From the sequence record PV935351.1: a DNA stretch of 39,767 bases. One strand, written 5' to 3'. This stretch comes from a phage. The notes under the pieces were generated by a model that saw nothing but the letters and a program-made list of their open reading frames with translations, searched no databases and was not told where the DNA came from. The translations under genes and the position numbers were made by a program. Positions 2,603 through 38,868 of the stretch are shown piece by piece. How positions within the stretch are numbered: the stretch's first letter is position 1; each line of letters begins with the position of its first letter.

Positions 2603-5284
2603 ATGAGCGTCATCTCTATTGATAAACACGACTTCTCTGATGTGTCGAACGCCATTGAGCCGTTTAACCTGCTGGCAGACCACTACGGGCAAGACCTTGC
2701 AGTCAAACAGCTTCAGCTTGAGCATGAGGCATACACAGAAGGCGAGCGACGTTTCATCAAAAACCTTGAGCGACAGACTGAGCGCGGGGAACTGGCAGAC
2801 AATCAGGTCGCCAAGCCTTTGATGCAGACTCTGGTGCCTAAGATTGCGCAAGCAGTCAAGGAGTGGCACGAAGGCCAAGACGGGAAGCTGTCAACCTCTC
2901 GTCCTAGCGTAGCGTTCACCATGTTAAGCACCGAAGAGAAGGCCGTCAAGGACCGCTCTCTGCGTATCTCTTGCGAGTCTGCTGCGGTCATCATACTGAA
3001 GGTCATACTCTCCAAGCTGGTAAAGCCTGAAGGGATACCGATTACACCGATGGCCTCAGCGTTAGGTCGCACACTTGAGGACGAAATCCGCTTCGGTCGC
3101 ATCCGTGACAAGGAGAAGGAGCACTTCAAGAAGGCGATAGCTGAGAACCTGAACAAGCGAGCTGGGGCATCCTACAAGAAAGCCTACATGCAAGCGGTAG
3201 AGGCATCCATGCTGGAGCAAGGCCAACTGGAAGATGCGTGGGGGACTTGGAGTCCGACCGAAGCGGTACACGTTGGCATCAAGATGCTAGAGATTGTCAT
3301 CCAGTCCACACAACTGGTCGAGCTTAAGCGTTATGGTGCTGGCAATGCGGCGGCTGACGTTGAGATGGTCCACCTGTCAGACTTCTGGGTCAAGAAGATG
3401 GCACAACGAGGATTCAGCCTTGCGGGTATAGCTCCAGTCTACCAGCCTTGCGTCGTTCCACCTAAGCCGTGGACTGGTGTCGTAGGTGGTGGGTACTGGG
3501 CCAAAGGTCGCAGACCGCTACCCCTGATTCGCTTAGGGTCTAAATCAGCGGTGGCACGTTATGAAGACGTATACATGCCTGAAGTCTATGACGCTGTGAA
3601 TATCATCCAGAATACACCTTGGAAAGTGAACAAGAAGGTACTGGACGTGGTGAACATGGTCGAGAAGTTGAACAACACGCCTATTGATGACATCCCTCAG
3701 ATGGAGCCACTGAAGCCTGAAGACTATGCGGGTGAGACTGAGGAGGAACTCAAGGCATGGAAGAAGGCTGCTGCTGGTATCTATCGCCGCGAGAAGGCCC
3801 GACAGTCACGCAGATTATCACTGAGCTTTATCGTTAACCAAGCAAACAAGTTCTCTCAGTTCAAGGCCATCTGGTTCCCGTACAACATGGATTGGCGAGG
3901 TCGTGTCTACGCTGTCCCGATGTTCAACCCTCAGGGTAACGACATGCAGAAGGGTCTACTGACTCTGGCAGTCGGCAAGCCTATTGGTGCTGACGGTTTC
4001 AAATGGCTGAAGGTCCACGGTGCGAACTGTGCGGGTGTCGATAAAGTCACCTTCGAGGAGCGCATCAAGTGGGTGGAAGACAACCACGAAAACATCATTG
4101 CTGCTGCTAAGGCACCGATGGATAGTATTGAGTGGTGGGGCAAGTTAGACTCTCCGTTCTGTTTCCTCGCGTTCTGCTTCGAGTATGCTGGCGTAATGCA
4201 CCACGGCCTGTCTTACTCCTGCTCGCTGCCGATAGCGTTCGATGGGTCCTGCTCTGGTATTCAGCACTTCAGTGCGATGCTTCGTGACCACATCGGTGGA
4301 CATGCAGTAAACCTGACGCCATCCGGTAAGGTACAAGACATCTACCGCATTGTGTCTGACCGCATTGAGGAGGAGCTTAAAGTCCTGCTGATTACAGGTA
4401 CTGACAACGAGATGGACACTCACGAGGACAAGAAAACTGGTGAGAGTACCGAACGTATCAAGCTGGGGACACGAGAGCTGGCCCGTCAGTGGCTGACATA
4501 CGGTATGTCACGCAAGGTCACTAAGCGTTCAGTCATGACTCTGGCCTATGGGTCGAAAGAGTACGGCTTCGCAGACCAAGTTTATGAGGACATCGTGATG
4601 CCAGCGATTGACTCAGGGTCTGGCGCTATGTTCACCGAGCCTAGCCAAGCGTCTCGCTTCATGGCTAAGATGATTTGGGAAGCTGTGAGTGTGACCGTAG
4701 TTGCTGCGGTTGACGCGATGAAGTGGCTTCAAGGTGCTGCCAAGCTGCTGGCTGCTGAGGTGAAGGACAAGAAGACTGGAGAAATCCTGAAGCCTTGCCT
4801 TCCGGTACACTGGGTAACACCTGATGGTTTCCCGGTCTGGCAGGAATACCGCAAGAAGGATACCACTCGTCTGAACCTGATGTTCTTAGGGTCATTCAAC
4901 CTTCAACCTACGGTCAACAAAGGTATGAAGAAGGAGTTGGATAAGCACAAGCAGGAGTCAGGAATTAGCCCGAACTTCGTCCACTCACAAGATGGTAGCC
5001 ATCTCCGCAAGACTGTAGTCCACACTCACCGCAAGTATGGCGTGATGTCATTCGCAGTGATTCACGATAGCTTCGGGACCATCCCGGCTGACGCTGAGTA
5101 TCTGTTCCGTGGCGTCCGTGAGACAATGGTCGAGACCTACCGCGACAACGATGTGCTGCTTGACTTCTACGAGCAGTTTGAATACCAGCTTCACGAGAGC
5201 CAGCGCGACAAGTTGCCTGAGCTTCCGAAGAAAGGTAAACTAAATATCGAGGACATCTTGTCTTCAGACTTTGCATTCGCTTAA
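2603..5284 (+). CDS. 1: T7-type single-subunit DNA-directed RNA polymerase
   Basis: 893 aa; collinear with recalled T7 RNAP, ending in the shared FAFA terminus and including WFPYNMDWRGRVYA, LPIAFDGSCSGIQHFSAMLRD and HDSFGT. Confidence 0.98.
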   Translation: MSVISIDKHDFSDVSNAIEPFNLLADHYGQDLAVKQLQLEHEAYTEGERRFIKNLERQTERGELADNQVAKPLMQTLVPKIAQAVKEWHEGQDGKLSTSRPSVAFTMLSTEEKAVKDRSLRISCESAAVIILKVILSKLVKPEGIPITPMASALGRTLEDEIRFGRIRDKEKEHFKKAIAENLNKRAGASYKKAYMQAVEASMLEQGQLEDAWGTWSPTEAVHVGIKMLEIVIQSTQLVELKRYGAGNAAADVEMVHLSDFWVKKMAQRGFSLAGIAPVYQPCVVPPKPWTGVVGGGYWAKGRRPLPLIRLGSKSAVARYEDVYMPEVYDAVNIIQNTPWKVNKKVLDVVNMVEKLNNTPIDDIPQMEPLKPEDYAGETEEELKAWKKAAAGIYRREKARQSRRLSLSFIVNQANKFSQFKAIWFPYNMDWRGRVYAVPMFNPQGNDMQKGLLTLAVGKPIGADGFKWLKVHGANCAGVDKVTFEERIKWVEDNHENIIAAAKAPMDSIEWWGKLDSPFCFLAFCFEYAGVMHHGLSYSCSLPIAFDGSCSGIQHFSAMLRDHIGGHAVNLTPSGKVQDIYRIVSDRIEEELKVLLITGTDNEMDTHEDKKTGESTERIKLGTRELARQWLTYGMSRKVTKRSVMTLAYGSKEYGFADQVYEDIVMPAIDSGSGAMFTEPSQASRFMAKMIWEAVSVTVVAAVDAMKWLQGAAKLLAAEVKDKKTGEILKPCLPVHWVTPDGFPVWQEYRKKDTTRLNLMFLGSFNLQPTVNKGMKKELDKHKQESGISPNFVHSQDGSHLRKTVVHTHRKYGVMSFAVIHDSFGTIPADAEYLFRGVRETMVETYRDNDVLLDFYEQFEYQLHESQRDKLPELPKKGKLNIEDILSSDFAFA

Positions 5285-5865: not shown

Positions 5866-6117
5866 ATGAGTAAACGTTGGCTATTCGACGCATCCACGAG
5901 CCAGTGGTCAGCGGTAGGCCGGACTCACCGCGCGATGAGTGAGGCAGGACTTGATGTCCTAATGGATTACTCGCCGTTCCCCGGAAAAATTCTGGTCAGA
6001 GTAATTGAAGCAGATGGTGGGAGGCTTCTGGTCTCCAGAGAATTTACCGAAGATGAAATCTTTAACTGTGAGCAATGGTGCTTACAACAATTGAACGCTT
6101 ATAGGAGCTGGAAATAA
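5866..6117 (+). CDS. 1.2: gp1.2-like protein (T7 gp1.2 inhibits host dGTPase)
   Basis: 83 aa, same size and position as T7 gp1.2, ends ...NAYRSWK (T7 ends ...DWK). Confidence 0.7.
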   Translation: MSKRWLFDASTSQWSAVGRTHRAMSEAGLDVLMDYSPFPGKILVRVIEADGGRLLVSREFTEDEIFNCEQWCLQQLNAYRSWK

Positions 6118-7169
6118 TGACAACGACTATCAAAACTAACCCGCACCGCGCTGTAGATTACTCTGAGTCTGGCGTTAAGAAGGCACTGGAAGCAGCCGGG
6201 TCGCTTGAAGCTGAAGTGAAGTACGATGGCGTCCGGTTGAATCTTCCGGTCTTCCCTACTGGTGAGACCCAATGGTTGAGCCGTGAGTCTAAACCTCTCC
6301 CAGCCCTTAGCTGGTTGAACACTTCCGGTCAGGACATAGGAGCTACCAAAGCGAGCGACTGGCGGTGGTTCCTGAAGCAAGCTGGCTATGAAGGGACTGG
6401 TCTGATGATTGATGGCGAGGTCATGGTGAAAGGGGTTGACTTCAACACGTCTTCGGGCCTCATCCGCACGAAGTATGTCAAGTCTAAAAACTACGACTTC
6501 CACGATGGCGATTGGGACCTCAAGTCCAAGACTACTCAGTTCCGGCTGGACCGAGACCATATCAAGGTGGTCGTCTACGGTGTAGTGGACCTTAACGTCA
6601 TCCTTGACCCGAAAGCCGAAGGTCCTATCCATAGCGTCACACGCCTGAAGGCCGAAGCTATCGTCCCTCTCCTCCAGAAATACTTCCCGGAAATCGACTG
6701 GGTTCTGTCTGAGTCACACACGGTCTATGACCTTGAGTCGCTCAGCTCCCTGTACGAAGAGAAGCGGCTGGAAGGACATGAGGGTCTGGTAGTCAAGGAC
6801 CCGCTTGGTAAATACAAGCGTGGCAAGAAGTCAGGCATGTGGAAAATGAAGCCTGAGGAGACCATCGACGGGACCGTGTGTGGCCTAGTGTGGGGGACTC
6901 CGGGCAAGGCTAACGAAGGTAAGGTGATTGGCTTTGAGGTGCTGCTTGAGGATGGCATGGTGGTTAACGCTTGTGGCCTGACTGAAGAACAGAAGGATGA
7001 GTTTACGGAAGCCTGTAACACTGATACATATATCCTCGGTGAAATCAATCCATACGAAGGCTGGCAGTGTGAAGTCCTTTTCATGGAGAGGTTCCCTGAT
7101 GGCTCACTCCGTCACCCTAGCTTCAAGTGCTGGCGCGGGACGGAAGACAACCCGACCGTTAAGAGTTAA
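6117..7169 (+). CDS. 1.3: ATP-dependent DNA ligase
   Basis: 350 aa; adenylation motif I KYDGVR at residues 35-40; T7 gene 1.3 position. Confidence 0.95.
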   Translation: MTTTIKTNPHRAVDYSESGVKKALEAAGSLEAEVKYDGVRLNLPVFPTGETQWLSRESKPLPALSWLNTSGQDIGATKASDWRWFLKQAGYEGTGLMIDGEVMVKGVDFNTSSGLIRTKYVKSKNYDFHDGDWDLKSKTTQFRLDRDHIKVVVYGVVDLNVILDPKAEGPIHSVTRLKAEAIVPLLQKYFPEIDWVLSESHTVYDLESLSSLYEEKRLEGHEGLVVKDPLGKYKRGKKSGMWKMKPEETIDGTVCGLVWGTPGKANEGKVIGFEVLLEDGMVVNACGLTEEQKDEFTEACNTDTYILGEINPYEGWQCEVLFMERFPDGSLRHPSFKCWRGTEDNPTVKS

Positions 7170-7178
7170 CTAAACGTC

Positions 7179-7212
7179 AACCCAGTGGTCTCCGGACTGC
7201 TGGGTTTCTTTG
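7179..7212 (+). terminator. intrinsic terminator after ligase (TE-like early terminator)
   Basis: CCCAGTGG / CTGCTGGG stem (two G-U pairs) with an 8-nt loop, followed by TTTCTTTG. Confidence 0.65.
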
Positions 7213-7231
7213 CGTCTAGACCGTAGATAGA

Positions 7232-7254
7232 CCTAAACTATCACTATAGGACAA
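7232..7254 (+). promoter_or_regulatory. phage RNAP promoter
   Basis: CCTAAACTATCACTATAGGAC, +1 G at 7249. Confidence 0.8.
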
Positions 7255-7281
7255 CCATAACTTCGACCTAAGGAGGCCGAC

Positions 7282-7542
7282 ATGTTTAAGAACTTAATGT
7301 TCAACCGTTATACCAGTACCTTCCACCTGTCCAACAACCCGTTCGCTTGCATTAAGCGCAACGAGAAGCTGGACTACTTCGGGAAGGTCGTTAAGCTGTC
7401 ACCTACAGTCTACGCTCTGATTACTCAGGGTAAAGCTGAAGAGGCTCGCCAAAAACGTGAGACCAACGTACCTGTAGTCTACACCAAGTGGCCTCGCGTT
7501 CGTCTGTTTATTGAGTTCGTGAAGGAGGTGATCAATGGTTAA
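7282..7542 (+). CDS. hypothetical protein (gene 1.6 position)
   Basis: 86 aa; AAGGAGG RBS. Confidence 0.65.
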   Translation: MFKNLMFNRYTSTFHLSNNPFACIKRNEKLDYFGKVVKLSPTVYALITQGKAEEARQKRETNVPVVYTKWPRVRLFIEFVKEVING

Positions 7543-7975
7543 GGTGGGGGATACAGTTAAATATGTTGGACCAATTGGAGCCCACATGGGACGCTCCTGT
7601 GGCAAGGTGATAATGGTTAAGAATGAGCATGTGGCTGTTGTTAAGTGGCCCCATTCATCTGAACCACTCACTCACTCCATTAGTTCCTTAAGTATTACCA
7701 AGCAGGCGCAGTCCGAGCCGATAACCATAGGTCAGGAAGATAGCGTCCGTAAGCCATCTCACTATCAGGTCTTTGACGGTGTGGAATCCATTGAGATTAT
7801 CGCTCGGTCAATGACTGTCAGCGAGTTCCGTGGCTTCTGCATGGGTAACGTCCTTAAGTATCGACTCCGGGCTGGTAAGAAGTCCGAGCTGGCTACTATG
7901 GAGAAGGACCTAAACAAAGCAGCCTTCTACCAGGAGCTGTTCGACCTGCATAAAGGTAAGTGTTATGACGTCTAG
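7535..7975 (+). CDS. 1.7: gp1.7-like protein (nucleotide kinase family, C-terminal homology only)
   Basis: 146 aa; the C-terminal 80 aa (KPSHYQVFDGVESIEIIARSMTV...LKYRLRAGKKSELA...KCY) match recalled T7 gp1.7; the N-terminal 65 aa differ and lack the Cys-rich motifs. Confidence 0.75.
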   Translation: MVKVGDTVKYVGPIGAHMGRSCGKVIMVKNEHVAVVKWPHSSEPLTHSISSLSITKQAQSEPITIGQEDSVRKPSHYQVFDGVESIEIIARSMTVSEFRGFCMGNVLKYRLRAGKKSELATMEKDLNKAAFYQELFDLHKGKCYDV

Positions 7976-8387
7976 TGATTGCATTGACCATGACTACAAC
8001 TGCAAGAGCTACGCAAATGTGTATTCCAAAGCTCATGGTAGAAACTTTGGTCTTCACCGAATAGTTCTAGCGGAGAAGTTAGGAGTCGATGTGGCTGAAA
8101 TGAAGGGAGTAGCGATGCACTCTTGTGACAATAAGAGATGTGTCAATCCTGAACACTTACAGTTAGGGACCCAGAGTCAGAACGTACTGGATGCACACTC
8201 AAGAGGACTGGTAAACGTGGTGTCTGGAGAAAAGCACCCAATGATCAAGCTCACAGACGAGCAGATTGCATATGTTCTGGGTAGTACGCTAGGCGCGAGA
8301 GCGATTGGCAGAGAGCTGGGAGTTTCACATTCGTTAATAAGCAGGTTGAGAAATGGAAAAGCAAGAGCTTCCCAGCGAGTGGGCTGA
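7965..8387 (+). CDS. HNH homing endonuclease
   Basis: 140 aa; HNH core HSCDNKRCVNPEHLQLGTQSQN; C-terminal HTH-like segment; AT-richer with AGA/AGG codons. Confidence 0.8.
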   Translation: MTSSDCIDHDYNCKSYANVYSKAHGRNFGLHRIVLAEKLGVDVAEMKGVAMHSCDNKRCVNPEHLQLGTQSQNVLDAHSRGLVNVVSGEKHPMIKLTDEQIAYVLGSTLGARAIGRELGVSHSLISRLRNGKARASQRVG

Positions 8388-8460
8388 GAGAAAATTTGAG
8401 GAGACAGGTAACGTCGATTACCTTCATCTCTACAACCAATGGAAGGAGCGTGGTCTATGA
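8353..8460 (+). CDS. hypothetical small ORF (gene 1.8 position)
   Basis: 35 aa, overlaps the HNH gene end and the gene 2 start; no clear RBS. Confidence 0.25.
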
Positions 8461-8615
8461 CTGACGTAGAAAAGAAATACATCGTGGAGCTTGAGGGTCG
8501 CGTTCAGTCATTCGATGTTCCGGTGTACGCAAAGTCTCTTGAAGAGGCTACCCTGAAGTCCCAAGAGTATGAGGACGCGGGGTTTGTGGTCGGACGGATT
8601 CGTCCTGAGACCTAA
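8457..8615 (+). CDS. 2: gp2-like inhibitor of host RNA polymerase
   Basis: 52 aa [31 protein letters not shown]...[11 protein letters not shown]; resembles recalled T7 gp2; GGAAGGAG RBS. Confidence 0.75.
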
Positions 8616-8633
8616 ACTATCACTGTAGGACAG
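8611..8633 (+). promoter_or_regulatory. phage RNAP promoter (variant, G at -3)
   Basis: CCTAAACTATCACTGTAGGAC; overlaps the gene 2 stop; precedes the SSB gene. Confidence 0.6.
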
Positions 8634-8673
8634 ACGTCCAGTTAGTAACTTTAAAAATAGGAGATTTACACCG

Positions 8674-9372
8674 ATGGCTAAAGAGCAACTGAAGACTTTC
8701 ACCACTCCGGTAGCTGGTATCGTTGAGCCTTACGCATGGCTGAACAAAGCAGACACCAAGTTTAATGATCGCGGTGAGCATAAGGTTAACCTGACTTTCG
8801 ACCTGAGCAACCCGAAGGTCCGTAAGATGATTGATGTCTTACAGAAGATTCACGACGATGCGTATGCGAAAGCACTCGCAGACCACGAGAAGAACCCACC
8901 TCAGGTTCAGCGTGGCAAGAAGCCTATTGAACCACGAGAAGGCGACATGCCGTGGATTGAGAATGGTGACGGTACTGTTACCCTGAAGTTTAAATGCTTT
9001 GCGTCTTACCTGAAGGATGGTAAGTCAGAGCCTATCGTATTACGGTTCTACGACACCGATGCTAAGTTAATCCGTGACGTCCCGAATATTGGCGCTGGCT
9101 CAAAGCTGAAGGTCAAGTTTAAAGTCCTGCCGTTCAAGTGGAACGCTGCGACTGGTGCAAGCGTTAAGCTCCAGCTTGAGTCCTGCCTTCTGGTAGAACT
9201 GAAGGAATGGAAAGGTGATGGTTCTGGTGGAGATGGTGGCTGGGGTGATGATGAAGACCTAGGCACTGGCTACAAAGCGTCAACCGATGGTGACTTCGGT
9301 GACGATGACTTCGGTGACGATGGTTCCGAAGGCGGTGACGACTCCAACTCTGGTGGCGATTACGACTTCTAA
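8674..9372 (+). CDS. 2.5: single-stranded DNA-binding protein
   Basis: 232 aa; GKKP...EGDMPW and GASVKLQLES match recalled T7 gp2.5; acidic C-tail ending in Phe (GGDYDF). Confidence 0.95.
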   Translation: MAKEQLKTFTTPVAGIVEPYAWLNKADTKFNDRGEHKVNLTFDLSNPKVRKMIDVLQKIHDDAYAKALADHEKNPPQVQRGKKPIEPREGDMPWIENGDGTVTLKFKCFASYLKDGKSEPIVLRFYDTDAKLIRDVPNIGAGSKLKVKFKVLPFKWNAATGASVKLQLESCLLVELKEWKGDGSGGDGGWGDDEDLGTGYKASTDGDFGDDDFGDDGSEGGDDSNSGGDYDF

Positions 9373-9824
9373 TGGCCCAATGGTCTGCAAAACGGGGGCA
9401 CTCTGTGGGTGCCTACCGCTCTGGACTTGAAGCCAAGAACCAGCAGTGGCTGGAACAGAACGGCGTCAAAGCGGAGTACGAAAGCCATTATATCAACTAT
9501 GTGATTCCGGCTTCCGACCACAAGTACACACCAGATTTTATCCTTCCTAACGGTATTATCGTGGAGACCAAAGGTATCTTCGATAGTGATGACCGTAAGA
9601 AGCACCTTCTGGTACGAGAACAGCACCCAGAGTTAGACATTCGGTTCGTGTTCTCAAGTTCCCGCTCCAAGTTATACAAAGGGTCTCCGACCACGTATGG
9701 CGCATGGTGCGAAAAGAACGGCTATAAGTATGCCGACAAGTTTATCCCGGTTGAGTGGCTGAAAGAGGCGACTGTACGTCTTCCTTCCGGCATCCTCATC
9801 CCTAAGAAGAAAGGAGTTAAGTGA
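9372..9824 (+). CDS. 3: endonuclease I (Holliday junction resolvase)
   Basis: 150 aa; YVIPASDHKYTPDF...GIIVETKG...DDRKKHLLVREQHPELDIRFVFSSSRSKLYKGSPT matches recalled T7 gp3. Confidence 0.95.
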   Translation: MAQWSAKRGHSVGAYRSGLEAKNQQWLEQNGVKAEYESHYINYVIPASDHKYTPDFILPNGIIVETKGIFDSDDRKKHLLVREQHPELDIRFVFSSSRSKLYKGSPTTYGAWCEKNGYKYADKFIPVEWLKEATVRLPSGILIPKKKGVK

Positions 9825-10315
9825 TGACTCAGAAATATAGACTTAAAGTTAGCCGCTACGGGTGGCCTGAAGGTACTATCGTTACGAAATGTGCGAAAGA
9901 CCCGTACCCAACGCCATTATCGACTCTGGTAGAAACCTCCGAGCGTGGCACCTACAAGCACGGAGCAGAAGGGCATAACACGCAGCCTGATGGTATGTGG
10001 GGGGCATGGGTCTGTGATCATGAACTTGAGGAAATCAAGCCGGAAGAGAAACTCACTGGTGTACAGACCACTCAAGTCCTGCCAGCCTCAAGTGTCCCTC
10101 CTGTCACCGTTAAGCGTGAAGTCCTGACCATCGACAAGATTGGTGTAGGCCAGACGTTCATCGTCCACGGAAAGCCTGAAGAAGTTTATGTGAAGATTAG
10201 CAACTCACACGTCTTCAACCATAAGCGTCTCCAGATGCACACCACGGACGCACAACGCTTCACCCAGCACCTGAATCTAGTGGTCGTAGAAGTGGTGGTG
10301 TACAATGGTAAGTAA
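9824..10315 (+). CDS. hypothetical protein with no T7 counterpart at this position
   Basis: 163 aa from ATG 9824 (AAGGAG RBS; the track start at 9821 is a GTG); no motif recognised. Confidence 0.7.
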   Translation: MTQKYRLKVSRYGWPEGTIVTKCAKDPYPTPLSTLVETSERGTYKHGAEGHNTQPDGMWGAWVCDHELEEIKPEEKLTGVQTTQVLPASSVPPVTVKREVLTIDKIGVGQTFIVHGKPEEVYVKISNSHVFNHKRLQMHTTDAQRFTQHLNLVVVEVVVYNGK

Positions 10316-12951: not shown

Positions 12952-12998
12952 TAGACTCAAGGTCATTCACATCGAGTGGCCTTTATGATTAGACTAAA
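12952..12998 (+). ncRNA. conserved structured RNA element, copy B (candidate RNase III site)
   Basis: TAGACTCAAGGTCAT, 9 variable nt, GTGGCCTTTATGATTAGACTAAAC. Confidence 0.55.
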
Positions 12999-13011
12999 CG
13001 GAGGATTAACC

Positions 13012-13413
13012 ATGTTTGATTGCATTGAGTGGACCGGGTGTCGAGATAGTTTCGGCTATGGTATGCGAAAGGTCAACGGGAAGGTCCGTAGACTACATCT
13101 GATAGCCTTCGAGGAGGCGAATGGTCCGATACCAGAGGGAATGGTCGTGAGGCACAAATGTGACAACCCTGCGTGCTACAATCCAGAACACTTGGAGCTG
13201 GGGACAAGGGCTGAGAACAATCACGATAGAGACGTTAGAGGTCGAACCGCTAAAGGCGTGCGACATGGAAGCTCTAAGCTTACACCTGAAATAGTACAAG
13301 AGGCCAAGGCTCTTTACGCAGTAGGTGGCTGGACTCACCGCTCATTAGGTAAGAAGTATGGAGTGGGTCACCGCACACTGGCTAGAGCAATTGGAGGAAA
13401 AACATGGACTTAA
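13012..13413 (+). CDS. HNH homing endonuclease
   Basis: 134 aa from ATG 13012 (GGAGG RBS); HKCDNPACYNPEHLELGTRAENNHD core; C-terminal HTH-like segment; AGA/AGG codons. Confidence 0.8.
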   Translation: MFDCIEWTGCRDSFGYGMRKVNGKVRRLHLIAFEEANGPIPEGMVVRHKCDNPACYNPEHLELGTRAENNHDRDVRGRTAKGVRHGSSKLTPEIVQEAKALYAVGGWTHRSLGKKYGVGHRTLARAIGGKTWT

Positions 13414-32771: not shown

Positions 32772-35700
32772 ATGTCCACGATTACACAATTCCCTTCAGG
32801 AAACACTCAGTACAGGATTGAGTTCGACTACCTAGCCAGAACGTTTGTGGTTGTTACGCTGGTGAATAGCTCTAACCCTACCATGAACCGTGTACTGGAA
32901 GTTGGTCGAGATTACCGATTCCTTAATCCAACGATGATTGAGATGTTGGTTGACCAATCAGGTTTCGACATCGTTCGTATTCACCGTCAGACTGGAACTG
33001 ACTTAGTGGTAGACTTCAGGAATGGCTCAGTGTTGACAGCTAGTGACCTGACCAATTCAGAGCTTCAGGCTATCCATATTGCAGAAGAAGGTCGAGACCA
33101 AACGGTTGACTTAGCGAAGGAATATGCCGATGCTGCTAGTAGCTCTGCTGGCAACGCTAAGGATAGCGAGGACGAAGCACGACGAATCGCTGAGAGTATC
33201 AGGGAAGCTGGTCTAATTGGCTATATTACCCGTCGCTCCTTCGAGAAAGGCTACAACGTTACAACATGGAGCGAGGTCCTGCTATGGGAAGAGGATGGTG
33301 ATTATTACCGCTGGGATGGTACGCTTCCAAAGAACGTTCCTGCTGGTTCAACTCCTGAAACTTCCGGTGGGATTGGATTAGGTGCGTGGGTTAGTGTTGG
33401 TGATGCTGCTTTAAGAAGTCAGATTTCAAACCCGGAGGGGGCAATACTCTACCCTGAATTACATAGAGCACGCTGGCTTGATGAAAAAGATGTGCGTGGT
33501 TGGGGTGCTAAAGGGGATGGTGTCACTGATGATACAGCAGCGTTAACGAGCGCATTAAGCGCCACACCTGTTGGACAAAAGGTTAATGGCAATGGGAAGA
33601 CATATAAGGTCACATCACTTCCTGACATTAGTCGCTTCATCAACACTCGTTTCGTTTATGAGCGCATTCCCGGACAACCTCTTTATTATGCCTCTGAAGA
33701 ATTTGTTCAGGGTGAGCTATTCAAAATAACTGACACCCCTTATTACAATGCGTGGCCTCAGGATAAAGCGTTCGTATATGAGAATGTGATATATGCACCT
33801 TACATGGGTAGCGATCGTCATGGTGTTAGTCGTCTGCATGTATCATGGGTTAAGTCTGGTGATGACGGTCAAACATGGTCTACTCCAGAGTGGTTAACTG
33901 ATCTGCATCCAGATTACCCTACAGTGAACTATCATTGTATGAGTATGGGTGTATGTCGCAACCGTCTGTTTGCCATGATTGAAACACGTACTTTAGCCAA
34001 GAACGCATTAACCAATTGTGCATTGTGGGATCGCCCCATGTCTCGTAGCCTGCATCTTACTGGTGGTATCACTAAAGCTGCAAATCAGCAATATGCAACA
34101 ATACATGTACCAGACCACGGACTATTCGTTGGTGATTTTGTTAACTTCTCTAATTCTGCGGTAACAGGTGTCTCCGGTGACATGACTGTTGCAACCGTAA
34201 TAGATAAGGACAACTTCACGGTTCTTACACCCAACCAGCAGACTTCAGATTTGAATAACGCTGGAAAGAATTGGCACATGGGTACTTCTTTCCATAAGTC
34301 GCCATGGCGTAAGACAGACCTTGGTCTAATCCCTCGTGTCACAGAGGTGCATAGCTTTGCTACTATTGATAACAATGGCTTTGTTATGGGTTATCATCAA
34401 GGCGATGTAGCTCCATGCGAAGTTGGACTTTTCTATTTCCCTGACGCTTTCAATAGCCCATCTAGTTATGTTCGTCGTCAGATACCATCTGAGTATGAAC
34501 CAGATGCGTCAGAGCCGTGCATCAAGTACTATGACGGTGTATTATACCTTATCACTCGTGGCACTCGTGGGGATAGACTGGGTAGCTCTTTGCATCGTAG
34601 TAGAGACATAGGTCAGACTTGGGAGTCGCTGAGATTTCCACATAATGTTCATCATACTACATTACCTTTTGCTAAAGTAGGGGATGACCTTATTATGTTT
34701 GGTTCAGAACGTGCAGAAAATGAATGGGAAGAAGGTGCGCAAGATGATCGTTACAAGGCATCTTATCCTCGCACCTTCTATGCACGCTTGAATGTAAACA
34801 ATTGGAATGCAGACGATATTGAATGGGTTAACATCACTGACCAGATTTATCAGGGCGGAATAGTTAACTCAGGTGTAGGCGTTGGTTCGGTAGTTGTGAA
34901 GGATAGTTACATCTACTACATGTTTGGTGGAGAGGACCATTTTAACCCATGGTCATATGGAGATAACTCAGCGAAGGATCCATTCAAAGCAGATGGTCAT
35001 CCCTCAGATTTGTATTGCTACAAAATGAAGATTGGCCCAGACAATCGTGTTTCAAGGGATTTCAGGTATGGTGCTGTACCTAACAGAGCTGTTCCCGTGT
35101 TTTTTGATACGAATGGGATTCGCACTGTTCCTGCGCCAATTGAATTTACAGGGGATTTAGGTTTAGGTCATGTGACCATTAGAGCCAGCACCAGTAGTAA
35201 CATTCGCTCTGAAGTTTTAATGGAAGGTGAATATGGGTTTATCGGAAAATCTATACCGACTGATAACCCGGCAGGGCAGCGCACTATATTTTGCGGAGGC
35301 GACAGTACCAGTTCTTCTTCTGGTGCACAGATTACGCTTTATGGTGCAAATAACACCGACTCAAAGCGAATAGTTTACAATGGTGCTGAGCATCTGTTCC
35401 AGACTGCTGACGTTAAGCCTTATAACGATAACGTCACTGCGCTTGGTGGGCCTAGCAACCGTTTCACCACTGCATACCTCGGAAGCAACCCTATTGTTAC
35501 TTCTAACGGGGAGAGGAAAACAGAGCCGGTAGTTTTTGATGATGCTTTCCTTGATGCCTGGGGTGATGTTCACTACATCATGTACCAGTGGTTGGATGCT
35601 GTTCAACTGAAAGGCAATGATGCTCGTATTCACTTCGGTGTTATTGCTCAGCAAATTCGTGATGTATTCATTGCGCATGGTCTGATGGACGAAAACAGTA

Positions 35701-35966
35701 CGAATTGTCGTTATGCTGTTCTGTGCTATGACAAGTATCCACGGATGACCGATACGGTATTTTCGCACAATGAAATCATTGAACACACTGACGAGGAGGG
35801 TAATGTCACTACTACGGAAGAACCTGTATACACCGAGGTGGTTATTCACGAAGAGGGTGAGGAGTGGGGTGTTCGGCCTGACGGAATTTTCTTTGCTGAA
35901 GCCGCTTATCAGAGAAGAAAACTGGAAAGAATCGAAGCCAGACTTTCTGCTCTTGAACAGAAGTAA
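32772..35966 (+). CDS. 17: tailspike endosialidase (endo-N-acetylneuraminidase) with gp17-like N-terminal adaptor and C-terminal chaperone domain
   Basis: 1064 aa; N-terminus MSTITQFPSGNTQYRIEFDYLARTF... is gp17-like; two Asp-boxes SGDDGQTW and SRDIGQTW; matches the endoNF precursor of phage K1F as I recall it; AT-richer from about 33420. Confidence 0.92.
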   Translation: MSTITQFPSGNTQYRIEFDYLARTFVVVTLVNSSNPTMNRVLEVGRDYRFLNPTMIEMLVDQSGFDIVRIHRQTGTDLVVDFRNGSVLTASDLTNSELQAIHIAEEGRDQTVDLAKEYADAASSSAGNAKDSEDEARRIAESIREAGLIGYITRRSFEKGYNVTTWSEVLLWEEDGDYYRWDGTLPKNVPAGSTPETSGGIGLGAWVSVGDAALRSQISNPEGAILYPELHRARWLDEKDVRGWGAKGDGVTDDTAALTSALSATPVGQKVNGNGKTYKVTSLPDISRFINTRFVYERIPGQPLYYASEEFVQGELFKITDTPYYNAWPQDKAFVYENVIYAPYMGSDRHGVSRLHVSWVKSGDDGQTWSTPEWLTDLHPDYPTVNYHCMSMGVCRNRLFAMIETRTLAKNALTNCALWDRPMSRSLHLTGGITKAANQQYATIHVPDHGLFVGDFVNFSNSAVTGVSGDMTVATVIDKDNFTVLTPNQQTSDLNNAGKNWHMGTSFHKSPWRKTDLGLIPRVTEVHSFATIDNNGFVMGYHQGDVAPCEVGLFYFPDAFNSPSSYVRRQIPSEYEPDASEPCIKYYDGVLYLITRGTRGDRLGSSLHRSRDIGQTWESLRFPHNVHHTTLPFAKVGDDLIMFGSERAENEWEEGAQDDRYKASYPRTFYARLNVNNWNADDIEWVNITDQIYQGGIVNSGVGVGSVVVKDSYIYYMFGGEDHFNPWSYGDNSAKDPFKADGHPSDLYCYKMKIGPDNRVSRDFRYGAVPNRAVPVFFDTNGIRTVPAPIEFTGDLGLGHVTIRASTSSNIRSEVLMEGEYGFIGKSIPTDNPAGQRTIFCGGDSTSSSSGAQITLYGANNTDSKRIVYNGAEHLFQTADVKPYNDNVTALGGPSNRFTTAYLGSNPIVTSNGERKTEPVVFDDAFLDAWGDVHYIMYQWLDAVQLKGNDARIHFGVIAQQIRDVFIAHGLMDENSTNCRYAVLCYDKYPRMTDTVFSHNEIIEHTDEEGNVTTTEEPVYTEVVIHEEGEEWGVRPDGIFFAEAAYQRRKLERIEARLSALEQK

Positions 35967-36658: not shown

Positions 36659-37108
36659 ATGCTCGAATTTTTAAAGAGAGCGGCTCCGTGGTTACTTGCA
36701 GCAGTGATGTTTGCTGGTGGCTACCACACCGCTAACAATAAGTGGGAGGCTAAGGTCAATGCAGAATACACCTCGAATCTTAAGGCATCGGAAGATACAA
36801 GGCTTGCTGTCCAAGCTGAAGTCAACAAAGTGTCCAAACGGTTTCAGGACGAAATGTCCTCGCTGGAAGGCAGCACTGATAGGATTATTGCTGACCTTAA
36901 GTCTGACAATAAGCGGCTGCTCATCCGAGTCAAACCTACGAGTGGAACCACGCAAAGTGACGGTCGATGCTTCATTGATGGTTACGCCGAACTTGACGAA
37001 CGAGATGCTAAACGTCTTATCACCATCGGAGTGAAAGGAGACAAGTGGATTAAGGCCCTTCAAGACACTGTGATAGCCTTACAGCAAGAGAAGGAGGTGA
37101 CGCATTGA
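36659..37108 (+). CDS. 18.5: i-spanin (Rz-like)
   Basis: 149 aa; N-terminal TM helix ([14 protein letters not shown]), coiled-coil periplasmic region. Confidence 0.9.
36759..37034 (+). CDS. 18.7: o-spanin (Rz1-like lipoprotein) embedded in the +1 frame of gene 18.5
   Basis: About 91 aa; lipobox LTISGC; PRWKAALIG...SGC..SES...VDASLMV.PNLT.EMLNV matches recalled T7 gp18.7. Confidence 0.85.
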   Translation: MQNTPRILRHRKIQGLLSKLKSTKCPNGFRTKCPRWKAALIGLLLTLSLTISGCSSESNLRVEPRKVTVDASLMVTPNLTNEMLNVLSPSE

Positions 37109-38868
37109 GTAAAGACTTAGTGGCGCGTCAGGCGCTAATGACTACCCGTATGAAGGCAGACTTCGTGTTCTTCCTGTTCGTCCTGTGGAAAGCTCTTAGC
37201 CTACCAGTACCAACCAGATGCCAGATAGATATGGCCCGCAAGCTATCGGCTGGGGACAACAGGCGTTTCATCCTACAGGCGTTCCGTGGTATCGGGAAGT
37301 CCTTCATTACGTGTGCATTCGTAGTCTGGAAACTATGGAACAACCCAGACTTGAAGTTCATGATTGTGTCGGCCTCAAAGGAACGAGCCGATGCGAACTC
37401 CATCTTCATCAAGCGAATCATCGACCTCATGCCTCAGCTTCGGGAACTCAAACCTAAGCAGGGGCAGCGAGATGCGGTTATCAGCTTCGACGTTGGACCA
37501 GCCAAGCCAGACCACTCACCTTCGGTTAAGTCCGTTGGTATCACTGGTCAGTTGACTGGTAGTCGTGCTGACCTCCTGATTGCCGATGACGTGGAGGTTC
37601 CAAACAACTCGGCGACTCAGGCTGCACGAGACCGTCTGTCAGAGCTTGTAAAAGAGTTCGACGCTATCCTGAAGCCGGGAGGTACAATCATCTATCTGGG
37701 TACTCCTCAGAACGAGATGACCTTATATCGTGAGCTGGAAGGCCGTGGATACACCACTACCATCTGGCCCGCTCGCTACCCACGCGATAAGAAGGACTGG
37801 CAGTCTTACGGCGACCGTCTGGCACCGATGCTTCAGGCAGAGCTTGAAGAGGACCCTGAGTCCTTCTACTGGCGTCCGACAGATGAAGTACGATTCGATG
37901 ATACGGACCTGAAGGAACGTGAGCTGTCCTATGGTAAAGCTGGCTTCGCTCTACAGTTCATGCTTAACCCGAACCTGAGTGATGCTGAGAAGTACCCTCT
38001 GAAGCTCCGTGACCTTATCGTAGCCGACTTGGACCCAGCGTCTAGCCCAATGGTATACCAATGGCTTCCTAACCCTCAGAACAAGCGTGAGGACGTTCCT
38101 AACGTTGGACTCATGGGTGACTCATACCACACGTATCAGACTGTAGGTTCTGCCTTCAGTTCGTACACCCAGAAGATTCTGGTCATTGACCCTAGTGGTC
38201 GTGGTAAGGATGAAACTGGCTATGCGGTACTATATCAGCTCAACGGCTACATCTTCGCTATGGAAGTTGGAGGTATGCGTGGTGGTTATGAGGACTCTAC
38301 GCTGGAAGCCTTGGCTAAGATTGGTCGTAAGTGGAAGGTCAACGAATACGTCATTGAGGGTAACTTCGGTGATGGTATGTACCTTGAGCTATTCAAGCCT
38401 GTAGCTGCCCGTATCCATCCTGCGGCTGTAACTGAAGTGAAGAGTAAGGGTCAGAAAGAACTCCGCATCTGTGACGTTCTGGAGCCTATCATGGGGTCTC
38501 ACCGACTTATCGTCAACGCTGCTGCTATCGTCCAAGACTACCAGACAGCCTCTGACAAGGATGGTGTGCGTAACCCTATCTACTCTCTCTTCTACCAGAT
38601 GACCCGTATCTCTCGTGAACGTGGAGCCTTGGCACACGATGACCGACTTGATGCGCTGGCTATCGGTGTACAGTTCTTCGTTGAGTCTATGGCTAAGGAT
38701 GCCAACAAAGGCGAACGTGAAGTCACTGAGGAGTGGCTGGAGGAACAGATGGAGAATCCACGGAAAGGCTTCGAGTCCATCCACACTGAGTTCTGGGACA
38801 ATGGGGTCCGGGTAACTCACGATACGGACGACGAGCTGGGACTAGGGTCCTACGTTACGTTCCACTAG
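37105..38868 (+). CDS. 19: terminase large subunit
   Basis: 587 aa from TTG 37105 (AAGGAGG RBS); [82 protein letters not shown] match recalled T7 gp19. Confidence 0.97.

Follow-up and report, generated by a model that had tools for sequence, protein, structure and literature searches.

The open reading frame (ORF) at 7965-8387 of the window, by which we mean the whole phage sequence analysed here (PV935351.1; 39,767 nucleotides), is very probably a free-standing HNH homing endonuclease gene of the T7 gp2.8/gp7.7 family, carried by a selfish 400-bp cassette at the overlap of genes 1.7 and 1.8. Four traits of homing endonuclease genes are seen at this locus, namely an empty-site polymorphism, a fixed site across diverged genomes, the lack of an intron or intein, and a degenerate copy. 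The window, a genome of the T7 type, stands close to Kayfunavirus, and 225 phage records, most of them from Escherichia or Salmonella Kayfunavirus, match the 2.4 kb around the HNH ORF at 80-99% identity. The features on which the analysis draws are as follows.

6117-7169: ligase, upstream of the HNH ORF in the local gene order
7236-7253, + strand: phage RNA polymerase promoter-like site upstream of gene 1.6, of the AACTATCACTATAGGA family; next such site at 8615-8632
7282-7542: gene 1.6
7535-7975, + strand: gene 1.7 (DUF3310/nucleotide kinase; 76 bits), upstream flank of the HNH ORF
7952-7967, + strand: shared ribosome-binding site (AAAGGTAAG) and ATG within the 3' end of gene 1.7; start of the HNH gene in the window and of gene 1.8 in phages that lack it
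7965-8387, + strand: putative HNH homing endonuclease ORF, 140 aa, ATG start, T7 gp2.8/gp7.7 family (ORF list, Pfam, PHROG, BLASTP)
7968-8367, + strand: 400-bp insertion relative to the empty-site allele (...TGCTATG/CTTCCGAGTGAGTGG..., slash at the insertion point), from alignments with HNH-less relatives
8118-8183, + strand: predicted catalytic His-Me/HNH core, residues 52-73 (H52 as general base, N61, N73)
8256-8351, + strand: predicted C-terminal three-helix HTH DNA-binding domain, residues ~98-129 (AlphaFold2 helices 98-106, 111-118 and 122-129)
8353-8460, + strand: gene 1.8 homologue, 35 aa (phrog_1312, E 1.2e-11; 48% identity to T7 gp1.8)
8368-8395, + strand: gene 1.8 tract that differs from HNH-less relatives and is common to HNH carriers (CCC AGC GAG TGG GCT GAG AGA), from alignments
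8439-8615: gene 2, RNA polymerase inhibitor (PF16857)
8674-9372: gene 2.5, SSB
12976-13413, + strand: second HNH gene, 145 aa, gp7.7-like, between primase/helicase and DNA polymerase (Pfam HNH_3, 63 bits)

An initial annotation made from the letters of the window had already called an HNH-family ORF at these coordinates, and both the coordinates and the motif that it quoted are confirmed, with Pfam and PHROG in agreement. The overlaps that it described with the end of gene 1.7 and with the start of a small downstream ORF are also real and measure 11 nt and 35 nt, respectively. Since that small ORF is gene 1.8 (whose relatives match Pfam DUF8272), the HNH gene sits between genes 1.7 and 1.8, such that the earlier placement between genes 1.7 and 2 was right about the upstream neighbour but not about the downstream one.

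The description of the ORF as AT-rich and AGA-using was likewise borne out in part. Arginine is encoded by 7 AGA and 1 AGG among 10 codons, compared with 54 AGA/AGG among 532 in 24 other genes of the window (~10%; Fisher p 7e-7), and the codon usage of the cassette is foreign. AT-richness, in contrast, is only mild, with a GC content of 0.470 in the ORF and 0.463 in the insert as against 0.489 and 0.498 in the 1-kb flanks and 0.499 in the window, and with a GC3 of 0.47 as against mostly 0.52-0.63 in other genes.

In the 1064-aa ORF at 32772-35966, GC is lower than in any other large gene (0.454, GC3 0.39) and 18 of 63 arginine codons are AGA/AGG. By position only, we take it to be the T7-type tail-fibre/tailspike gene, and its low GC and many AGA/AGG codons suggest horizontal exchange of the receptor-binding gene.

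Protein family and predicted architecture

Judged by sequence comparison, the assignment of the protein to the HNH family is secure and far beyond chance. The Pfam HNH_3 profile (PF13392) matches residues 30-74 by a small margin (27.4 bits against a cut-off of 24.8), whereas the PHROG profile phrog_59, 'HNH endonuclease', matches at E 1.5e-23, phage homologues reach E values down to 1e-85, and tblastn finds matches in more than 1000 phage records. Loss of the HNH residues on alignment was named in the initial annotation as evidence that would count against it, and the residues proved to be conserved: H31, H52, C54, C59, H64 and N73 are invariant in an alignment of 27 sequences, C6, D55 and N61 are at least 90% conserved, and P62 is nearly invariant. 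The peptide HSCDNKRCVNPEHLQLGTQSQN forms residues 52-73 of the protein (nt 8118-8183), and C54, C59 and H64 are probable zinc ligands.

The AlphaFold2 model of the protein (pLDDT 86.5, with block means of 90-96 over residues 11-70) predicts a ββα core of the ββα-metal fold followed by three C-terminal helices. Matches of the C-terminal part to Pfam HTH_38, HTH_3 and HTH_31 are sub-threshold, and a structural search with the C-terminal tail gave as its best matches the HTH domains of Tc3, Hin and AcrIIA15. A PDB sequence search with the HNH protein returned noise only (the HTH of AcrIIA15 at E 0.08, and histones), and NCBIfam holds no model for either HNH protein of the window or for gp1.8. An N-terminal His-Me-finger nuclease followed by a C-terminal HTH makes this, as predicted, an I-HmuI-type architecture. 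Among close copies of the gene dN/dS is 0.09-0.17, across the nuclease domain, which points to purifying selection maintaining the protein where it is intact.

A six-frame search of the window revealed exactly two members of the HNH family. The second, at 12976-13413, is 48% identical to T7 gp7.7 (E 2e-37), and a homologue of it is annotated as '7.7B predicted homing endonuclease' in Citrobacter phage CR44b. The two proteins of the window had been thought to share the core motif alone, which the alignment contradicts: they are 36% identical over 137 residues that include the C-terminal HTH (E 3e-19), and thus belong to one family, with a common architecture but diverged sequences. They are nonetheless far from the near-identical paralogues that the initial annotation had set against its proposal of separate acquisitions, and the presence/absence survey that it suggested favours that proposal. 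Both genes are sporadic among relatives: 3 of 225 records have the first and 13 of 247 the second, with no record shared between the 3 and the 13 carriers listed. Given these different distributions, separate acquisition is the better reading.

The T7 proteins relevant to the first HNH are gp2.8 (33% identity over 134 aa, E 6e-19) and gp7.7 (35% over 126 aa, E 3e-16), the HTH being included in both alignments, rather than gp3.8 and gp5.3, with which the initial annotation had proposed to compare it. BLASTP of the first HNH against gp3.8 and gp5.3 gave no match at E ≤ 10, and gp3.8 matches only the second HNH of the window, weakly (E 2e-7). A 2025 preprint counts three homing endonucleases in T7, the products of genes 2.8, 3.8 and 7.7 (10.1101/2025.09.07.674715).

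The gene 1.7/1.8 junction with and without the cassette

Comparison with HNH-less relatives defines a clean insertion. From anchor to anchor the window measures 492 nt, whereas the eight loci that lack the HNH, those of phiHAO2-2 and of seven IMG/VR contigs, measure 92 nt, and the insertion point lies directly 3' of the ATG that normally starts gene 1.8. In empty-site genomes this ATG lies within the final codons of gene 1.7 (...AAAGGTAAGTGCTATG/CTTCCGAGTGAGTGGTGC..., slash at the insertion point), and it is used by gene 1.8 in phiHAO2-2, Klebsiella K5 and T7 but by the HNH gene in seven carrier backgrounds. The new ATG of gene 1.8 (8353) lies within the last 35 nt of the HNH ORF and adds four residues to gp1.8 (M-EKQE, from the 3' end of the cassette). 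As the cassette thereby gives gene 1.8 a start codon, the flanking genes would still be expressed. The insertion also altered the final codons and the stop of gene 1.7, whose product ends in CYDV in the window and in CYASE in phiHAO2-2.

Just 3' of the insert, five substitutions common to carriers change CCG AGT GAG TGG TGC to CCC AGC GAG TGG GCT, and the stop codon of the HNH ORF (8385-8387) falls within the tract at 8368-8395. This tract is a candidate co-converted or immunity tract, although it could equally represent hitch-hiking variation or dual-coding constraint rather than target immunity. We rejected the idea that the TGC-to-GCT change was needed to end the HNH ORF, since the unaltered sequence already has an in-frame TGA, as in the Klebsiella version. 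At the other end of the ORF, the N-terminal MTPSD of the HNH protein recurs in gp1.8 of Klebsiella K5, a resemblance that is only suggestive of capture from gene 1.8; two members of the junction clade, L028 and L030, start with MTDC and MSEC and are without MTPSD.

The 18-mer family AACTATCACTATAGGA has 7 sites in the window as against 0.05 expected, and none lies within 7254-8614. The corresponding promoter-like motif, AACTATCACT(A/G)TAGGA, occurs on the + strand at 2515, 5594, 7236, 8615, 20035, 32706 and 38967, mostly just 5' of genes. By analogy with T7-type organisation, the site at 7236-7253 is likely the promoter of a 1.6-1.7-HNH-1.8-2 unit, and, with no phage-type promoter inside the unit, the cassette would be transcribed together with genes 1.6, 1.7, 1.8 and 2; the HNH gene is probably translationally coupled to gene 1.7. 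Scans for sigma-70 promoters and terminators did no better than on shuffled sequence. An Rfam search of 7000-9000 gave no intron or other RNA at E ≤ 1, and the HNH gene reads from its own start codon to its own stop codon as an ORF apart, inside neither an intron nor an intein.

Among relatives the cassette is rare. It is present in 3 of the 225 flank-matching phage records, one of these an internally deleted remnant, and is absent from 17 of 17 IMG/VR relatives. The intact carriers are Salmonella phages CHRF_10022 and CHRF_20120 (94.6% nucleotide and 95.7% amino acid identity), in which the gene is annotated 'HNH endonuclease'. The remnant in CHRF_10023.2 (L003:1526-1660) keeps both ends of the cassette and the cassette-derived start of gene 1.8 but has lost 257 bp including the catalytic core, in a deletion bounded by two TGACCA repeats. 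A 95-aa protein entry (P0006, 95% identical) was considered as a second truncated copy and rejected, as the DNA of L026 has an intact 140-codon ORF and the short form is a gene-calling artefact.

Beyond these close relatives, Klebsiella Przondovirus genomes carry a 52-55% identical homologue at the 1.7/1.8 junction in 38 of 391 flank-matching records (~10%), and the protein database holds further members at 64-74% identity, every one of which, where context was fetched, showed the order gp1.7-HNH-gp1.8-gp2 in other T7-like backgrounds. Kayfunavirus, Przondovirus and three metagenomic T7-like backgrounds thus share both this order and the ATG in use, while one 49% identical relative is located away from the junction. 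Across diverged backgrounds the HNH protein is 54-74% identical to that of the window, compared with 38-58% for ligase, gp2 and gp2.5, and on these sequences its divergence between genera is not far from that of the backbone. The upstream flank of the window (7000-7700) is 89-96% identical to HNH-less phiHAO2-2 as against 46-96% to other carriers; because it matches an HNH-less phage and not the other carriers, the cassette sits on different haplotypes.

Several further observations concern this region. Within gene 1.7, the 5' half (7500-7750) is 90-96% identical to phiHAO2-2 but only 46-75% to carriers L026 and L001, whereas from ~7800 onwards all exceed 90%, and this sharp shift points to a recombination breakpoint 200-400 nt upstream of the cassette. 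In relatives, at least three further small ORFs, all unrelated, occupy the 1.7/1.8 spot, either at the gene 1.8 ATG or directly behind it, and each brings gene 1.8 another start ATG. Phage 216Ecol046PP has one of 75 aa, of which L012 carries a truncated version; two IMG/VR contigs have a hydrophobic one of ~30 aa (MLNDILYFGLICAGVGALL...); and that of Klebsiella K5-2 is acidic and ~45 aa long (loci L004:1184-1411, L012, L017 and L020 at ~2733-2880, and L024:~560-690). From these sequences the junction looks like an insertion hot spot. The metagenomic T7-like contig L028 carries, besides its junction HNH (2173-2592, 64% identical to that of the window), a second HNH_3 gene (3612-4025) between SSB and endonuclease I, where T7 has its gene 2.8. 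Further downstream in the window, a 164-aa GTG-start ORF without a Pfam match lies between endonuclease I and amidase (9821-10315); alignments to most relatives break at ~9831-10123, which marks another variable slot, and the slot holds a 163-aa ORF in L026 and a 74-aa gene in CHRF_10022.

Homing and other readings of the gene

Free-standing homing endonucleases spread by a cut-and-repair scheme, and we propose that the HNH gene of the window does the same. In a mixed infection the HTH would bind the HNH-less allele and the nuclease would nick or cut it at or near the 1.7/1.8 junction, the candidate region in empty alleles being near ...TGCTATGCTTCCGAGTGAGTGGTGC...; recombinational repair off the HNH-carrying genome would then give the cut genome a copy of the cassette along with short stretches of its flanks. 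The carrier genome would itself be protected, its site being interrupted by the cassette and/or altered by the downstream substitutions. For the junction clade we found no report of cleavage, target site or super-Mendelian inheritance for any member. A more far-reaching version, which we hold to be unlikely, would make the 1.7/1.8 overlap a dedicated cassette-exchange point of T7-like phages, with accessory-gene turnover and the upstream mosaic boundary in gene 1.7 driven by cleavage by the junction HNH, and with the HNH perhaps also acting as an anti-defence or competitor-exclusion factor. This version counts at least four unrelated small ORFs, besides the HNH gene, at precisely this spot in different genomes, each re-creating a start codon for gene 1.8.

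Other readings differ in what they take the protein to do and how long it has been there. It may mainly benefit the phage, by cutting co-infecting relatives or by blunting a break-sensing host defence of the GAPS4 type, perhaps without catalysis. This would be compatible with homing and is possible, if on the unlikely side: HNH homing endonucleases, including a catalytically dead T7 gp3.8, are reported to attenuate GAPS4, and in the presence of GAPS4 wild-type T7 is reported to outcompete a mutant without genes 2.8, 3.8 and 7.7 (10.1101/2025.09.07.674715). The ORF of the window is a gp2.8/gp7.7 homologue under purifying selection, which fits such a role, but the protein tested, gp3.8, has no significant similarity to it, nothing in the sequence bears on defence, and a strong general benefit would sit badly with so rare a gene (3 of 225 close relatives) and with the decayed copy. 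The decayed copy (CHRF_10023.2) and the marginal Pfam HNH_3 score (27.4 against 24.8) could also be taken to mean that the ORF of the window is a catalytically dead relic, either non-functional or with a DNA-binding or regulatory role through its HTH only. We regard this as very improbable, as the protein lacks none of the catalytic and Cys/His residues that are invariant in the family, the nuclease domain has a dN/dS of 0.09-0.17, and the model of that domain is confident (block-mean pLDDT 90-96 over residues 11-70).

The occupation of one site in several genera, together with an HNH divergence (54-74% amino acid identity) broadly like that of some backbone proteins (gp3, the gp1.7 C-terminus), would suit an old vertical resident of the junction that was lost repeatedly, the empty site being restored by recombination. 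Such a history is decidedly improbable given that the empty site is uniform and organised as in T7, where the end of gene 1.7 contains the 1.8 ATG, that codon usage is foreign, that ligase, gp2 and gp2.5 vary more across backgrounds than the HNH does, and that carriers lie on different upstream haplotypes and are very sparse in each genus. An HNH that assists the terminase in packaging, as in HK97-like cos phages, would share with this one that it is a small phage HNH protein and nothing more, and is scarcely credible here. The HNH gene has its place in the class II DNA-metabolism region, and ~29 kb separate it from the downstream gene at 37105-38868 that, by position and size only, we take to be the terminase gene; the protein has an HTH domain and belongs to the gp2.8/gp7.7 family; and nearly all relatives are without the gene yet package normally. 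Position and presence/absence pattern thus effectively refute a packaging role.

With homing as the preferred reading, the HNH gene of the window is an ordinary free-standing homing endonuclease gene, in that near-identical and distant same-site relatives are already annotated as such in public genomes. For annotation, the ORF would become a free-standing HNH homing endonuclease of the gp2.8/gp7.7 family at the 1.7/1.8 junction, and the start of gene 1.8 moves to 8353. The locus is a compact example of how a presumably selfish gene can enter a region without intergenic space, taking one start codon and giving another such that its neighbours are unharmed, and carrier, empty and decayed alleles are all on hand at one site conserved across genera. 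To our knowledge, neither T7 gp2.8 nor gp7.7 has a defined target, and the junction clade offers a well-delimited candidate for defining the targets of this family.

Comparison with known systems

The T4 seg and mob genes, free-standing genes whose spread is by intron-less homing, resemble the HNH gene in being small nuclease genes that are wedged between conserved genes and sporadic in distribution, in their expected co-conversion of flanks, and in having start and stop codons that overlap their neighbours (general knowledge and PMC10448857). The seg genes differ in encoding GIY-YIG nucleases where that of the window is HNH, and T4 genes often have their own promoters, whereas no promoter for the HNH gene lies between those of the phage type at 7236 and 8615. 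The domain order is that of I-HmuI of Bacillus phage SPO1 (PDB 1U3E), in which an N-terminal HNH precedes a C-terminal HTH DNA-binding domain. In sequence the two are only remotely related, with no PDB sequence match below E 0.08, and I-HmuI is an intron-encoded nicking homing endonuclease, whereas the gene of the window is free-standing, without intron RNA, and its product may either nick or make double-strand breaks.

T7 gp2.8 and gp7.7, themselves putative HNH homing endonucleases, share the HNH_3 core and C-terminal HTH and are likewise encoded by small free-standing genes between conserved T7-type genes, but their sites are between genes 2.5 and 3, or 7.3 and 8, rather than at 1.7/1.8, and they are about as distant from the first HNH as is the second HNH of the window. 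The nearest counterparts are the junction genes of CHRF_10022 and CHRF_20120 and of Klebsiella Przondovirus, such as phi1_146042 and Poteet, in the latter of which the gene is annotated 'putative homing endonuclease'. The window departs from these carriers in joining the cassette to another upstream haplotype and in having a second, gp7.7-like HNH, and its protein has a C-terminal tail 4-7 residues longer than the Klebsiella version, owing to the loss of one TGA. In position, start-codon arrangement and architecture, the HNH gene of the window and these counterparts are alike.
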